From IMG/VR virus record IMGVR_UViG_2698536485_000022: a DNA stretch of 15,456 nt. One strand, 5' to 3'. The position numbers were made by a program, and so were the translations under genes. Below the pieces are notes generated by a model. That model did not search any database and was not told where the DNA came from. It saw only the letters and a program-made list of their open reading frames with translations. Shown in pieces: positions 3,295 through 14,548 of the stretch. How positions within the stretch are numbered: position 1 is the stretch's first letter; each line of letters opens with the position of its first letter. Source of the DNA: a virus (lineage: Duplodnaviria > Heunggongvirae > Uroviricota > Caudoviricetes).

Positions 3295-3819
3295 TTACGA
3301 CTCAGTTAACTCTTTAAAGCGTTCCATAAACATCCCGTAGGCATGGCCCGGTGCCAGTGGAATCACGTTGAACATCTCTGTTGCCGGGATGCCTTCCAGT
3401 ACAGGCCAGAAAGAGCCATCATCAAGCCCGAGATCGCGGCGTTCGGTTGCCAGCATGATGAGATCGGCATATTTCACGGGCGTACTCATAACCGGGGGTA
3501 ACCCGTATTTCTCACGGATTACGGCGTCTATTTTTTCTTCCATCCGTTTATAGTCAGGAAGAAGGCGTTTCAGTGGTGCGGGAATGTCCTGGCAATACGC
3601 TTCTGTTGCATCATGCATTAACGCTTCAAAAGCAAATTCCTGCGGCACCAGCTGGCTGCAAAGCACCGCATGTTGGGCGACGCTGTAGAAGTGAGAAAGA
3701 TGACCGGCAAAGCGACAGATATTTGAAAGGGAAACCGCGATATCGTTAATAACGATGTCATCTTTATTTATCTTGTCATAATAAAAATGCTTCCCGGAAA
3801 AAGTTTTAATAAATGACAT
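3295..3819 (-). CDS. yfdR: HD-domain phosphohydrolase, YfbR/YfdR-like 5'-deoxynucleotidase family
   Basis: Track ORF 3295-3846 trimmed to ATG 3819 with GGAG 8 nt upstream; 174 aa. HD signature AGHLSHFYSVAQHAV ... ALMHDATEAYCQDIP. Size and position next to a 274-aa gene match my recollection of CPS-53 yfdR. Confidence 0.7.
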   Translation of the reverse strand: MSFIKTFSGKHFYYDKINKDDIVINDIAVSLSNICRFAGHLSHFYSVAQHAVLCSQLVPQEFAFEALMHDATEAYCQDIPAPLKRLLPDYKRMEEKIDAVIREKYGLPPVMSTPVKYADLIMLATERRDLGLDDGSFWPVLEGIPATEMFNVIPLAPGHAYGMFMERFKELTES

Positions 3820-3946: not shown

Positions 3947-4771
3947 TCAGGCGGTGAAAGTACCAATAAAGGTTTCTACTTTGCTGTCTTTGAATTTCTC
4001 AACAAGCAGATCACGAAATTCGTTAGCCATATCTTCCTGCACCGCTTCCAGCTGAATAATGCGCAGAACCAGTACAGGACGATCGCCAGTGATAATGCTG
4101 AGGCGTAATTTAAACGGACGTTCTTTCAGACCTTCAAACGGAACGCATTTAAATTCAAATGCCACTGGCATAATGTCTTTGGTCTTCGCTTCGACAGATT
4201 CCATCAGGGAGCGTTTGCCGCTGAAGTCATTATCTTCAAAATCAGCGGTCTGGTTTGCTTCAATCGTGATTTTACGGATTGCCGCAGCCGCTTTTGTTGC
4301 CTGAATGGCGCCACCATTAGCATCAAAGCCCACAAGGTAGTCGGCCCAGTCTTCAATCCATTCTGCCAGTGATTTCTGGGAGTTACGCTCGCCGTTAACA
4401 GACAACAGGGCAGAGAACGGTGCTGTCTTTTTCAGTTTGAGAGTGGCGGTGTTATCTGCGTGACCTGGTTCATCAATAGTACCCAGGTTAAGCACACTGA
4501 CGGCACGCATATTATCAGCATCGATAAAGCAGCGGGTGCCTTCATCTGCAAGATCTTTAGAATAACGGGTAAAGTCATCGATGCTGGCAGTGGAAAGCGC
4601 ACCACGGAAACGGAAGCGATTTAAATTAAATTTTTCCAGATCATGAATGCGGAAATTCTCAGGCAATGCCACAGCATCGGCACCAATCTTACTGATAATT
4701 TCATTAACACCCTGAGCAGAAATAAGGGCATGGATTTGATTAATTGCGGTTGCGTCTAAGTTCTGAGACAT
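3947..4771 (-). CDS. yfdQ: YfdQ-like prophage protein (DUF2303-type)
   Basis: 274-aa ORF from ATG 4771 with GAGGA Shine-Dalgarno. Length and synteny (120-aa gene upstream, HD-domain gene downstream) match the yfdP-yfdQ-yfdR order of K-12 CPS-53 as I recall it. Not verified by alignment. Confidence 0.55.
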
Positions 4772-4836
4772 AATAAGTCCTCACTATATAAAGATATTCA
4801 GTGATGAGATAAATAATCAGTTAATTAAGAACGATA

Positions 4837-5199
4837 TTAATGACCTGCTGCGCGTAGTTTTCCGTCAGGTTCACCGGCAAGAGTCAGTAATTGTCCCTGG
4901 TCTTCCTGCAGAATAGTCAGGCGACCACCGCGATTGACATACATCGGCGTTTCGGTGGTGTCTTCTTCGGAAATTTTCCCGCGGTTAGTCGGGCGAACAT
5001 ATGAGAGTTTGTGTTTGATTTTCACACGGTTCTCATCAAATGGTTCGATTTCCAGGTTGAGTGAGACCTTACCTTTGGTTTTCGTGTTCATCACACCGGA
5101 AGCGACTTCACTGAGAACTGCGCCGATTTTGGTTTCAAATACGCCGCCGTCCAGCTCCCCGATAAATGCCTGCACATCAGTACTGCGTTCGCTAGCCAT
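4837..5199 (-). CDS. YfdP-like small prophage protein (120 aa)
   Basis: Track ORF 4837-5430 trimmed to ATG 5199, which has AGGAG 7 nt upstream (MASERSTDVQAFIGELDGG...). The 77-codon upstream extension overlaps structured RNA and looks non-coding. Confidence 0.55.
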   Translation of the reverse strand: MASERSTDVQAFIGELDGGVFETKIGAVLSEVASGVMNTKTKGKVSLNLEIEPFDENRVKIKHKLSYVRPTNRGKISEEDTTETPMYVNRGGRLTILQEDQGQLLTLAGEPDGKLRAAGH

Positions 5200-5247
5200 T
5201 TTGCTGCTCCTCATCATATCGACCCTGCAAGGTCGGTTGGTTTCTCC

Positions 5248-5336
5248 ACAAAACAGAGAAGAACACCTGCGGTGGCAGCCGCCCGGATGGATTGGGTTAT
5301 GAGCCCGTCGTCCGGTGATGCTCTTCTCTGTTTTGT
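5248..5336. repeat. perfect 15-bp inverted repeat (ACAAAACAGAGAAGA / TCTTCTCTGTTTTGT) flanking a 59-bp GC-rich spacer with nested hairpins
   Basis: Arms at 5248-5262 and 5322-5336 are exact reverse complements. The spacer contains CCGGA ... TCCGG and GCGG ... CCGC pairings. Lies 50-140 nt upstream of the yfdP-like start. Confidence 0.8.
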
Positions 5337-5400
5337 AAAAAGAGCGGTACCAGCCGGAAGCAAGGGTACAAACTGGTACCGCCAAAGCAGTGGCTGTTGT
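5334..5400 (-). ncRNA. candidate DicF-like sRNA ending in an intrinsic terminator (tL-like)
   Basis: Minus-strand RNA forms GCGGUACCAG-(19 nt loop)-CUGGUACCGC (5344-5353 / 5373-5382) followed by UCUUUUUAC. The 5' part CUUUGGCGGUACCAGUUUGUACCC resembles the DicF core UUUGGCGGUAUCAGUUUUACUCC as I recall it. Sits downstream of the pL-like promoter, as dicF does relative to dicA. Confidence 0.35.
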
Positions 5401-5799
5401 GGTGGGGTTGTCACTCAGGCGTATGGTCAACCTGACAATCCGGTGTCCTCAACGGGGAAAGAGTAACCCCGCCATACTTACCGCCGCGCCATTTCGCGGA
5501 TTACCACAACGCTGAGAGCACTTAGCCAGTTACGGCACCACACTTTGTCGCGGCTCCATAAATGCCCTCATCGTTGCCCCCTGGTCTCTTCCCTGGCGTC
5601 AAACCGGATCGCCGCGCTGGTTAGGCGTCTTATCAGCATCCTCATTGACTTGCACATTCCGGCTACCTGGTTTGTTTGCCCGAGCAAGGAGTGGATTATC
5701 CCCTTTAACGTCACCAGACCGCTAACGACGCATGTGCCATACGCCGTGTTACAACCAAATTTTGTTTAATCTTGCCTGTGTTGTGTTTCTTTTAGATAC

Positions 5800-5827
5800 A
5801 TTATGTATCCCGAGGGTACATTGTCAA
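5800..5827 (-). promoter_or_regulatory. candidate early-left promoter (pL-like) with overlapping palindromic operator
   Basis: On the minus strand: -35 TTGACA (5822-5827), 16-nt spacer, -10 CATAAT (5800-5805). Palindrome GATACA-TTA-TGTATC (5795-5809) overlaps the -10. GGTACA half-site at 5815-5820. Confidence 0.45.
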
Positions 5828-5831
5828 GTAT

Positions 5832-5854
5832 AAAAAAACCTGCCGAAGCAGGTT
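5832..5854 (-). terminator. rho-independent terminator ending the cI transcript
   Basis: Minus strand AACCTGC-TTCG-GCAGGTT followed by seven U, 12 nt after the cI stop codon (5866-5868). Confidence 0.65.
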
Positions 5855-5865
5855 ATAAATATTGA

Positions 5866-6540
5866 TTAGGCCTTTATTATGTATCTTCTTGGTTTTCCTG
5901 AGAAAATCACTGTACCAATTATAGAGCAATTACCGTTGATCTTAATGTAAGGTTCAGGCCAGTTTGGGTTTAATGCTTTGAGGTAACGCTGTGTTCCATC
6001 TTCTATCAACCGCTTGAAGGTGGTTTCGCCTGTATCGTGCATCAATGCAATAACGTCGTCACCGTGGCAGGCAGGGACTTCAGGATCAACAAAAATCATG
6101 TCTCCCGGGCGGTACTCATCAATCATTGAATCACCAATCACCCGCAAGATATAAGTCATTTCGCCACAGGGTACAGGGCAGGGGTAAGTTTCTGCTGTGC
6201 TCAAATCAACCTCAGAATAGCCAACTTCTTTCCATGCTCCGGCCTGTACCCATGATATGACAGGGACTAACGTTATTTGTTTGTTAGTGATTGAAACATC
6301 AGGTTTTTTTGTGATGTTCGTGGTCTGGTGTTCTTGATCAAGCCATCCGACAGGCAGGTCGAAACATTTTTCGATGTGCCGCGCCATGCTGTCACCGATA
6401 TTTTTAGTAGCACCATCTCCCATAAACCTGCTGGTCTGGGTTGGCTCGCGATCAATCATGGTGGCAAAGGAAGAATTCCCGCCAACACCATCTCTCAGTT
6501 TTCTGGCGTTAGACCGCCGGATGTCATGGACTGTTTTCAT
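5866..6540 (-). CDS. cI: CI-type prophage repressor (N-terminal HTH, C-terminal S24 LexA-like autopeptidase)
   Basis: 224 aa from ATG 6540. C-terminal domain has the Ala-Gly cleavage site (VQAGAW), catalytic Ser in VIGDSM and Lys in TFKRL. Divergent from the cro-like gene. Confidence 0.85.
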   Translation of the reverse strand: MKTVHDIRRSNARKLRDGVGGNSSFATMIDREPTQTSRFMGDGATKNIGDSMARHIEKCFDLPVGWLDQEHQTTNITKKPDVSITNKQITLVPVISWVQAGAWKEVGYSEVDLSTAETYPCPVPCGEMTYILRVIGDSMIDEYRPGDMIFVDPEVPACHGDDVIALMHDTGETTFKRLIEDGTQRYLKALNPNWPEPYIKINGNCSIIGTVIFSGKPRRYIIKA

Positions 6541-6630
6541 AAAGAAATTAAAACCTTTGTACCGATAAGGTACAAGTATCTTGAAGGTTCATCTCAATCA
6601 TGTAATATGTATACCGGAAGTACATATTGT
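6541..6630. promoter_or_regulatory. divergent immunity-region promoter/operator segment (pRM / pR equivalents)
   Basis: Perfect palindrome TTGTACC-GATAA-GGTACAA at 6557-6575 and related TACA-TAT-TGTA at 6621-6631. Candidate pR hexamers TTGAAG (6581-6586) and TAATAT (6603-6608). Confidence 0.55.
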
Positions 6631-12723: not shown

Positions 12724-12740
12724 TTTTGTGGAGAAAGTTG

Positions 12741-13121
12741 ATGCGTGATATTCAGATGGTTCTTGAACGCTGGGGGGCATGGGCGGCAAGTGGTAACACC
12801 GGGGTGGACTATTCTCCGATCGCTGCCGGATTCAAAGGACTTTTACCATCTGCCACTAAACCACGTCCGGCCTGCTGCGATGATGACGGACTTATCATTG
12901 AAAACTGTCTTGCTCGTCTGAAGCAGAAAAAACCTGAGGAGTATTCGCTTCTCATTGCTCATTATTTGTTGCGAATATCAAAAAGACAGATAGCCAGGAC
13001 GAGAAAGAAAAGCGAAAAAGCAATACGAATTGAGATGCAGATAGCCGAAGGGTTTATTGACGGATGTTTGTCTGTGCTGGGGGTAAGACTGGAGATGGAC
13101 GACTGGCTGCTAAAAAAGTAA
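12741..13121 (+). CDS. late-gene antiterminator Q (QuuD/QuuQ type)
   Basis: 126 aa from ATG 12741 with GGAG Shine-Dalgarno (MRDIQMVLERWGAWAA ... AAGFKGLLP ... CCDDDGLIIENCLARLKQ). Followed by a terminator. Confidence 0.75.
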   Translation: MRDIQMVLERWGAWAASGNTGVDYSPIAAGFKGLLPSATKPRPACCDDDGLIIENCLARLKQKKPEEYSLLIAHYLLRISKRQIARTRKKSEKAIRIEMQIAEGFIDGCLSVLGVRLEMDDWLLKK

Positions 13122-13911: not shown

Positions 13912-13987
13912 GGCCCTTTAGCTCAGTGGTGAGAGCGAGCGACTCATAATCGCCAGGTCGCTGGTTCAAATCCAGCAAGGGCCACCA
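13912..13987 (+). tRNA. tRNA-Ile (anticodon CAU, ileX/ileZ-like); tRNA-Met not formally excluded
   Basis: 76 nt: GGCCCTT acceptor stem, TAGCTCAGTGG D-arm, anticodon loop CTCATAA (CAT at 13945-13947), T-loop TTCAAAT, 3' ACCA. Close to the E. coli ileX sequence as I recall it. Confidence 0.85.
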
Positions 13988-14067: not shown

Positions 14068-14144
14068 GCGTTGTTAGCTCAGCCGGACAGAGCAATTGCC
14101 TTCTAAGCAATCGGTCACTGGTTCGAATCCAGTACAACGCACCA
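14068..14144 (+). tRNA. tRNA-Arg (anticodon UCU)
   Basis: 77 nt: acceptor GCGTTGT/ACAACGC, anticodon stem ATTGC/GCAAT with loop CTTCTAA (TCT at 14102-14104), T-arm ACTGG-TTCGAAT-CCAGT, 3' ACCA. Confidence 0.85.
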
Positions 14145-14548
14145 CACCACACTTATCTGCCCTGACTCTCTTTTGCGGGCTTTTTATTACAGGAAAGACA
14201 CCGGACAGTGAAATGTTAAATGCCTCACAATTCAGGCAGTTGACTGTTGCCTGACATGCTGAGCGTTTGTTAAAAAAATCCTGCATGATGAATCCCCCTG
14301 AGCGGCGGGGCATAATGACAGATGTTTGGTTGCGTATTGTATAGGCAAGTTGCGGATTCTGTCTGGTCATTGCAGAATTCACCGGGAGGCACCCGGCATC
14401 ATGCTGTATACAGAGATTAGGCATATATCCAGGCTTCTCATCGCAGGAGCCTTTTTACATGCAAAAAAAAGCCCGAGTGGGTTCGGGCAACAGCATGAGA
14501 TACTTGCATTGTCATTTTTATCGTGTGGATTTTAACCAGGGTTTATAA

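Follow-up and report, generated by a model that had tools for sequence, protein, structure and literature searches.

Noncoding RNA modules in the early-left leader of an N-less prophage: a DicF-type cassette preceded by an apparently undescribed structured RNA

DicF is a small RNA (sRNA) of Escherichia coli K-12 that blocks cell division. It is made from the ydfABC-dicF-dicB-ydfD transcript by early Rho-independent termination followed by trimming with RNase E; alternative longer DicF species obtain their 3' end through an RNase III cut of the full-length RNA, and the downstream genes dicB and ydfD are expressed from read-through transcripts (PMC9438474). In HK022, a lambdoid phage without N, noncoding RNA elements (put) are located just downstream of the early promoters (PMC9378689). 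Here we describe the early-left leader of a phage sequence from IMG/VR (record IMGVR_UViG_2698536485_000022), of which the whole stretch of 15,456 nucleotides (nt) is referred to as the window. The leader covers about 590 nt on the minus strand, between a pL-like promoter and yfdP. An earlier note on this DNA had argued that a strong terminator in this leader calls for antitermination, served either by a nut-like site or by a put-like RNA of the HK022 type. The best explanation of our results is a leader built as a series of noncoding RNA modules that are read from a promoter under repressor control, and that is neither a decayed gene nor a nut site. The known dicBF design accounts for two thirds of it; the other third is made up by a structured RNA family, here called module A, for which neither a match in Rfam nor a description was found.

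The likeness to the dicBF locus of the cryptic prophage Qin concerns both arrangement and sequence. At both loci a leftward-type operon under repression comes after the gene for a repressor; within this operon an sRNA that ends in its own terminator lies ahead of the protein genes, and a structured region follows that terminator. The approximately 120 nt upstream of the sRNA are 89% identical (5510-5388 against NC_000913 ~1649251-1649373, directly upstream of dicF: 89.4% over 123 nt, E = 3e-45), and the match includes GUUGUGG and the identical hairpin CCGCGAAAUGGCGCGG. This domain, module B, is closed by a stem whose K-12 counterpart (GUUGUGGC/GCUGCAAC) retains pairing. A further match is present in phage P1, just after the C1-controlled ban promoter, where it overlaps the 'dicF-like region' of the P1 record and where inner stems are compensated (GUAUGG/CCAUAC to GCAUGG/CCAUGC, and CGGGG/CCCCG to CUGGG/CCCAG). 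A difference from Qin is that the window has no preceding ydfABC; module A and a long helix (P7, see below) are found there instead.

Downstream of module B the window aligns with DicF at the core UUUGGCGGUAnCAGUUU (the UUUGGCGGUAcCAGUUU stretch) and at the position of the terminator. The strong terminator that had been reported inside the leader is indeed present: a 10-bp stem (GCGGUACCAG/CUGGUACCGC) with a loop of 19 nt, the length of which explains why a consensus scanner missed it, folds at -22.5 kcal/mol (z = -2.9) and runs into UCUUUUU. Since the module B flank, the core and the terminator position all align with dicF, this terminator appears to close a DicF-related sRNA, a membership that the earlier note had overlooked together with module A, the largest conserved element of the leader (5573-5752). 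The sRNA lies in a prophage operon that appears to be under repressor control, on the downstream side of the structured region found before dicF, and has its own Rho-independent terminator (5344-5382 plus UCUUUUU) at the same alignment position. From position, flanks and terminator we consider the cassette a DicF-type locus, though not a member of the Rfam family as defined. Relatives keep the shared stem GGCGGUACCAG/CUGGUACCGCC and the upstream UUUGGCGGUA; their terminator loops (5354-5372) are unrelated, reading UUUGUACCCUUGCUUCCGG in the window, UUUUUUCCUUAGUCCUUU in relatives L127 and L093 and AAUCCCGAAUCGUCG in L063 and L102. The loop therefore looks like a swappable targeting segment, and this variability points to phage sRNAs that form a family and differ in their host targets. 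In L102 the DicF-related sRNA directly follows tRNA-Arg (tRNA, transfer RNA). Between the terminator and the ribosome-binding site (RBS) of yfdP a long hairpin is predicted at -51.2 kcal/mol (z = -7.35), which L127 and L093 keep paired with changed bases; by analogy it is a candidate RNase III site.

Module A lies upstream of these elements. Five helices, one of which is a pseudoknot, were read off a MAFFT alignment of 24 diverse representatives, in which 92.5% of the cells are paired and 11 pairs are changed on both sides. The covariance model built for it (R1) detects module A once in the window (136.9 bits, E = 2e-43) and finds a total of 79 copies in 78 sources. Among the 76 distinct sequences 96.2% of the cells are paired, with changes on both sides in 13 of the 27 pairs; this larger alignment was fitted to the model and is hence biased towards the structure, though the independent MAFFT alignment agrees. 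The observed covariation score is not attained in any of 500 shuffles, and only 29-53% of the cells can pair when the partner strands are slid by 1-3 columns. A compensatory change is seen in the pseudoknot as well, which reads AACC/GGUU in the window and its closest kin (9 of the 76 sequences) against CACC/GGUG in the others. The invariant G-U pairs of module A would become C-A on the opposite strand, so that their invariance on the minus strand fits an RNA made from the transcribed strand.

The structural support for module A is comparative only, given that folding of the single sequence is no better than for shuffles (z = +0.31). One point concerns the first helix, H1: instead of the local hairpin, RNAalifold prefers to pair GCACAU with AUGUGC at long range, and both alternatives involve invariant bases. 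Nonetheless, one H1 pair (columns 11/23) switches from G-C to A-U in 30 of the 76 sequences, which favours the local H1.

The family is widespread. Its invariant 19-mer GGTAGCCGGAATGTGCAAG occurs exactly in more than 120 IMG/VR contigs, and with blastn module A is found in 1832 of 5426 complete E. coli genomes (approximately a third). It is also present in Kosakonia, Phytobacter, Superficieibacter and E. whittamii. A scan of a genome collection was made with a 15-mer, a probe that proved too short; nhmmer confirmed five of its loci, all in Enterobacteriaceae. No annotated feature underlies module A among the E. coli matches listed, nor in any record that we inspected. Rfam 15 gives no match over 5573-5752, neither at the gathering score nor at E up to 10, and none over module A in 15 diverse relatives; the Rfam runs, which covered the window, the P1 and K-12 loci and these relatives, returned only weak chance matches over the leader. 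Full-text literature searches, both for the sequence and for descriptions of such an RNA, gave nothing. We conclude that module A represents a structured RNA family that is strongly supported by sequence comparison and apparently undescribed.

As a separate observation, a type I-E spacer from the CRISPR (clustered regularly interspaced short palindromic repeats) locus of E. coli 2012C-4502 (NZ_CP027440.1 1868888-1868919; L255 151-182) is 100% identical to 5700-5731 on the minus strand, inside module A. In the window this protospacer is preceded by ATG, a type I-E protospacer-adjacent motif. The match indicates that E. coli has acquired immunity against a conserved noncoding element.

The surroundings of module A show a recurrent pattern at its 5' side. 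In lambdoid relatives of several immunity types a cI-like gene, a terminator and a promoter with a palindromic operator are followed by module A, with the -10 element ending 4-90 nt upstream of it; in L017, L047, L038 and L118 the predicted transcript start lies at or beside H1. In phiV10-type phages a promoter-like site is found 86 nt upstream, and tRNA-Arg(UCU) together with one small open reading frame (ORF) lies downstream. In P1 and P7 module A is located between trnI and ban, within the C1-controlled ban operon. Module A is almost always at or near an RNA 5' end, which is either primary or, as in P1, made by tRNA processing. What it precedes is varied: an sRNA, a tRNA, a helicase gene or terminators. 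The core is in most cases directly followed by helix P7; alternatives are a hairpin whose U-rich tail contains a canonical boxA of the rrn type (L090, L034, L047), an RBS (P1 ban, L071) or another conserved noncoding sequence (mEp390 type).

A terminator-like hairpin plus a convergent membrane-protein gene is found after module A in L047, L090 and L028. One such gene is present in L047 and in L090. The lambdoid IMG/VR contig L028 carries module A twice in tandem (3993-4158 and 4800-4963, minus strand), at a distance of about 800 nt, and behind either copy lies a convergent gene encoding a membrane protein of ~165 amino acids (aa). Module A and the inserted gene may move together.

In the ban leader of P1 both modules are present. 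Module B, together with a DicF-like hairpin, follows the ban promoter, module A occupies the trnI-ban spacer, and both are on the transcribed strand of a repressor-controlled operon. Order and spacing differ from those in the window: module B comes first and module A 2.3 kb later, directly before the RBS of ban, with tRNA genes and other genes in between.

Helix P7 explains a motif that had been read as a boxA. The earlier note pointed to GCTCTCAGC, the complement of 5511-5519, and to the hairpin CCGCG-AAATGG-CGCGG (5499-5484); both are there, and both are conserved RNA features. The boxA-like GCUCUCAGC (5519-5511) is part of the 3' strand of P7, where it pairs with 5563-5571. All 22 distinct variants of the P7 strands can pair (-16 to -27 kcal/mol), cognate strands averaging -22.3 kcal/mol against -15.0 for non-cognate combinations. 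The 3' strand varies from GUGCUCUCAGCG to GUGCUCUUUCCG, GUGCGCUCCCGG, GCGCCGUUUCCG and others, and the partner strand changes to match. Because several variants (for instance GUGCGCUCCCGG and GCGCCGUUUCCG) keep the pairing while losing the resemblance to boxA, this resemblance is not the conserved property.

The end of the P7 3' strand, GUUGUGG, is invariant. In tRNA-bearing relatives (epsilon15-like and others) the P7 3' strand forms the 5' leader of tRNA-Arg(UCU), the tRNA starting inside it as GUU|GUGGCAUUAGCUC. In the window the place of the acceptor stem is taken by the module B stem GUGGU/ACCAC, although module B itself differs from a tRNA in being recognised neither by ARAGORN nor by the Rfam tRNA model. 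Judging from the predicted pairings, two mutually exclusive folds are possible, one with GUUG bound upstream, in P7, and one with GUUG bound downstream, in the stem of module B.

Because position and flanks are homologous to those of dicBF, the same logic may be expected to hold for the window. The leader would be read in the order promoter, module A, helix P7, module B, DicF-related sRNA with terminator, 25-bp hairpin and yfdPQR. Upon inactivation of the repressor the early-left promoter would fire; a share of the transcripts would end at 5337-5343 and give rise, after trimming, to stable small RNAs (the DicF-type sRNA, perhaps along with a stable form of module A), and the remaining transcripts would read through, be cut at the long hairpin and be translated from yfdP onward. 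We assign a probability of roughly 0.6 to such a dicBF-type arrangement, in which terminated transcripts yield small RNAs and read-through yields yfdPQR. The modules, their structures, homologies and distribution are read from sequence, and from these we infer the partition of transcripts, the processing by RNases, the stability of the products and the function of module A. On this model the terminator, as an end that forms a product, does not by itself imply antitermination of the N or put type, which the earlier note had taken to be needed; it would be the 3' end of a DicF-type sRNA, and partial termination plus RNase processing is documented for DicF (PMC9438474).

If correct, the design in which one transcript gives several RNA products would be extended from dicBF to intact inducible phages of the SfV/cdtI/Stx2c type. 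Module A is placed at the very start of the first transcript made upon induction, in phages without N. Should it govern elongation, processing or sensing, this would bear on early-left expression in N-less lambdoid phages and also provide a new RNA tool in the best-studied bacterium.

Several observations weigh against this picture. The copy of module A in the window carries two pair-breaking substitutions (A-A in the middle of P6, A-C at the outer pair of P4) where Ayreon and the other nearest relatives pair normally, and it may be slightly impaired or degraded. The P1 copy of module A has 2.3 kb of the ban operon, including a tRNA, ahead of it, and in epsilon15-like phages module A heads a short tRNA unit, so that no single cis-function fits every context. 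The sRNA of the window lacks the first 20 nt of DicF as well as the ftsZ-pairing segment UUUUACUCCG, and its terminator stem is different and longer. It also fails the Rfam DicF model (RF00039; threshold 48 bits), which gives no match at E up to 10 in 5100-5950 against 76.7 bits on K-12 dicF, so the label 'DicF-type' rests on position, flanks and a 17-nt core. Where DicF has the segment complementary to the ftsZ RBS (CAGUUUUACUCCG) the window has CAGUUUGUACCCUUG, and by eye the complementarity to the K-12 ftsZ leader ends after AGUUU; in RNAduplex predictions of DicF with ftsZ, which contain long loops, real sequences are not separable from shuffles. Given the missing ftsZ-pairing segment and the different stem, the targets of this sRNA probably differ from those of DicF. 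Finally, two PHROGs families with function unknown (phrog_33599 and phrog_3651) match mechanically called ORFs (5214-5414 on the minus strand and 5272-5466 on the plus strand) across the terminator and the long hairpin, though these families were probably built from miscalled ORFs on conserved noncoding DNA.

With respect to what module A does, our leading guess is that it acts in cis from the 5' end of the transcript and influences how the RNA downstream is elongated or processed; its pseudoknot and invariant joining strands recall those of partner-binding RNAs. A cis-effect on elongation or termination in particular is rather doubtful, a platform for processing or stability and a stable trans-acting RNA, which belong to the best explanation, are jointly a tentative option, and a switch that senses a ligand or factor is unlikely. 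It is likewise only tentatively that we suggest module A as the first member of a new class of phage leader RNAs acting on the transcription or processing machinery, be it as a put-like, protein-independent antiterminator or as a ligand- or factor-sensing switch; if true, N-less temperate phages of enterobacteria (lambdoid, P1-like and epsilon15-like) would control the products of their earliest transcripts, including DicF-type sRNAs and tRNAs, through module A. The antiterminator variant, in which the nascent RNA would bind RNA polymerase and do the job of put without being its kin, is compatible with an array of noncoding modules, and its targets would be the DicF-type terminator here and the terminators of the inserted convergent genes in relatives. 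Like put, module A is noncoding, lies just past an early promoter in an N-less phage and could in principle play the same part. It directly follows the early promoters of N-less lambdoid phages of several immunity types, and its complex conserved fold has invariant joining strands. In the window there is a terminator, as the earlier note had it, but no sigma-70-like promoter between the terminator and yfdP (promoter scan of the window), and in L047, L090 and L028 leftward transcription must cross a terminator-like hairpin and a convergent gene. We nevertheless regard this reading as doubtful. The put elements, which are found in each of the two early operons, measure ~70 nt and form two stem-loops; module A, of ~180 nt with five helices including a pseudoknot, resembles them neither in sequence nor in structure, is single-copy in its genomes and is absent from the rightward operon. 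The proposed kinship with HK022 was put to the comparison: its pL-nun and pR regions share only chance matches of 8-13 nt with the window (blastn-short), and neither nhmmer nor the covariance model finds anything significant for module A in HK022 (7.4 bits, E = 0.2). Instead of copies after both early promoters, the window has one module A and one boxA-like 18-mer. Furthermore, the P1 copy comes only after the first terminator-like hairpin in the ban operon, the short tRNA unit headed by module A in epsilon15-like phages needs no read-through, and the two copies in L028 would be superfluous for a processive modifier. A census of terminators 3' of module A in 108 relatives was uninformative in that the detector fired on both strands alike (103 against 102 loci). 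A riboswitch-like sensor, whose ligand-binding core would steer varied downstream platforms (a terminator in some relatives, an RBS in P1 ban and L071, alternative GUUG pairings in the window), would account for the invariant joining strands, the variable peripheral stems, the pseudoknot and the placement of one core ahead of differing units. It would also make use of the two exclusive pairings of GCACAU (local H1, or the long-range one preferred by RNAalifold) and of the choice of GUUG between P7 and the module B stem. Here we see little likelihood: there is no candidate ligand, the contexts are not metabolic genes, inspection of terminator-bearing relatives by eye found no consistent overlap of antiterminator and terminator, and the alternative pairings use invariant bases that are beyond the reach of covariation.

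Two further readings concern the leader as a whole. According to the first, the boxA-like motif and the GC hairpin form a nut- or rrn-type site that recruits NusB/NusE, with or without an N-like protein encoded elsewhere, and so confers resistance to termination. A boxA-like heptamer with a hairpin shortly (11 nt) downstream recalls lambda nut, UGCUCUCA agrees at 6 of 8 positions with the lambda boxA (CGCUCUUA), and GCUCUUU is present in several P7 variants; some relatives (L090, L034, L047) have a canonical rrn boxA (GCUCUUUAACAA or one mismatch off) after a hairpin at the equivalent position. Such a site is nonetheless quite improbable, and the nut interpretation of the earlier note fails on several counts. 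Rather than being single-stranded and conserved, the motif is one strand of a covarying helix, or, in tRNA-bearing relatives, the leader of tRNA-Arg, and its resemblance to boxA vanishes in several variants. The hairpin belongs to the module upstream of dicF and is present in the N-less prophage Qin of K-12, and its 6-nt loop AAAUGG is unlike the usual boxB loops. The 18-mer GTGCTCTCAGCGTTGTGG occurs once in the window (0.00 expected by chance) and no second copy of the boxA-like motif was found there, which means that the rightward (pR) operon has none. The earlier statement that no N gene is visible was borne out: neither the ORF list nor the family matches yield an N-like protein in the window, be it just downstream of the hairpin or elsewhere, and the only antiterminator found is Q-like. 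The first gene, yfdP (phrog_204, function unknown), is not arginine-rich and hence not N-like. According to the second reading, small protein-coding genes are concealed in the leader, or the leader is what remains of a deleted gene, for example N. Mechanical ORFs do exist (48 and 66 codons on the minus strand, 64 and 74 on the plus strand), and ORFs of this kind are listed in the leader by Ayreon and PHROGs. The claim that no minus-strand ORF exceeds about 30 codons therefore stands for ATG starts and not for GTG starts, which open 48 codons at 5568-5714 and 66 codons at 5214-5414, both without a match in Pfam. RefSeq annotates nothing in this region (no feature in 5200-5865), relatives conserve no reading frame, as the spacing between conserved blocks takes all three values modulo 3, and substitutions keep base pairs instead of codons. 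In view of this, and of the conservation of the region as noncoding sequence in very different phages, a coding origin is very improbable. An array of noncoding RNA modules thus remains the best explanation, in line with the part of the earlier note that saw a functional noncoding RNA region in an N-less phage.

For the relatives with an rrn-type boxA we add that it reads GCTCTTTAACAA, GCTCTTTAATAA and GCTCTTTAAAAA in L090 (~3355-3375), L034 and L047, 25-35 nt past module A, where the window has P7. In L090 no N-like gene was seen downstream. Some phages may use Nus-dependent antitermination at this position of the leader, which is not demonstrably the case for the phage of the window. A 9-codon ORF (AUGGAGCCGCGACAAAGUGUGGUGCCGUAA) lies inside P7 (5526-5560, minus strand) and is preceded by GAGGG; its phiV10 copy has one amino-acid change and it is absent from SPN1S and other relatives, so it is probably not meaningful.

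The promoter postulated by the earlier note was located (Table 1). It adjoins the cI terminator (5837-5854) on its downstream side and contains an operator-like motif, GTATCCCGAGGGTAC (5805-5819), and a palindrome, GATACATTATGTATC, at 5795-5809. The pattern GTAY-N7-RTAC has three copies in the window (5805-5819, 6559-6573 and 6609-6623) against 0.41 expected by chance, and the two copies outside the promoter are both in the cI-cro intergenic region. On this evidence the three sites are probably the binding sites of the repressor, and the presence of their motif in the promoter agrees with control of early-left transcription by the repressor.

A sensitive DNA search shows that the relatives change from one part of the leader to the next. 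The first ~100 nt (cI terminator and promoter) travel with the immunity type. Positions 5504-5766 are related to epsilon15-like podoviruses (phiV10, TL-2011b, SPN1S), to P1, P7, D6 and SJ46, to Klebsiella and Enterobacter phages and to the lambdoid phages mEp390 and mEp460, and 5388-5510 to another set of phages, to a second place in P1 and (by direct alignment) to K-12 Qin. The final part, 5200-5384, goes along with yfdP, for instance in SfV and SfIV. In SfV (L003 3686-4472) modules A and B are replaced by orf33 (99 aa, not arginine-rich) and an annotated terminator, and the promoter and the DicF-type terminator/hairpin module are retained. Module exchange has a hotspot in the leader. The orf33 product, encoded at this position of the SfV leader, is not N-like.

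A prophage of E. coli 13E0725 matches the window at 100% identity; phages Ayreon, cdtI and 2H10 and a set of Stx2c phages match it at 97-98%, and SfV has parts in common with it. By sequence we classify it as an SfV/cdtI/Ayreon-type E. coli prophage. All features are collected in Table 1.

Table 1. Positions of the leader elements and of neighbouring genes in the window. Strand and details are given where available.
Feature	Position	Strand	Details
Module A	5573..5752	-	conserved structured RNA core, ~180 nt; covariance model and covariation
Module A, H1	5746-5738 with 5734-5726		9-bp hairpin, GCA loop
Module A, P2	5718-5714 with 5670-5666		encloses variable insert; conserved UCCUU loop
Module A, invariant joiner	5667-5649		GGUAGCCGGAAUGUGCAAG
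Module A, P4	5628-5625 with 5617-5614		loop UCACC in family alignment
Module A, pseudoknot	5622-5619 with 5605-5602		AACC (P4 loop) with downstream GGUU
Module A, P6	5596-5592 with 5584-5580		loop GAAGAGA
Helix P7	5507..5576	-	CAACGAUGAGGGCAUUUAU (5576-5558) with CUAAGUGCUCUCAGCGUUG (5525-5507); 17 bp, encloses 32 nt; directly after module A
Module B	5396..5510	-	structured domain closed by GUUGUGGU (5510-5503) with ACCACAAC (5403-5396); 8 bp, perfect pairing
GC hairpin CCGCG-AAAUGG-CGCGG	5499-5484	-	inside module B
DicF-related sRNA body and terminator	5335..5395	-	stem 5382-5373 with 5353-5344, then UCUUUUU 5343-5337
Long hairpin	5248..5336	-	25-nt arms 5336-5312 and 5272-5248; between terminator and yfdP RBS
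Early-left (pL-like) promoter	5827..5800	-	TTGACA-16-CATAAT; 11/12 consensus positions; annotated promoter in Ayreon
Intrinsic terminator of cI (ymfK-like)	5837..5854	-	7-bp stem, then UUUUUUU; annotated terminator in Ayreon
yfdQ	3947-4771	-	RefSeq
yfdP	4837-5199	-	RefSeq annotation of identical prophage; RBS GAGGAG, ATG at 5199; first protein-coding gene of early-left operon
cI (named ymfK; LexA-family repressor)	5866-6540	-	RefSeq
cro-like, cII-like and O-like genes			rightward
Q-like antiterminator	12726-13121		only antiterminator found in window

On the 3' side of the Q-like gene the window carries tRNA-Met (13912-13987) and tRNA-Arg(tct) (14068-14144), followed by the sRNA STnc100 at 14254-14462 (175 bits); the other strand encodes the anti-sRNA AgvB at 14464-14523. 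A kinship of the leader modules with STnc100 was considered and yielded trivial matches only. In K-12 a weak STnc100-like match (34 bits) begins directly after dicF.

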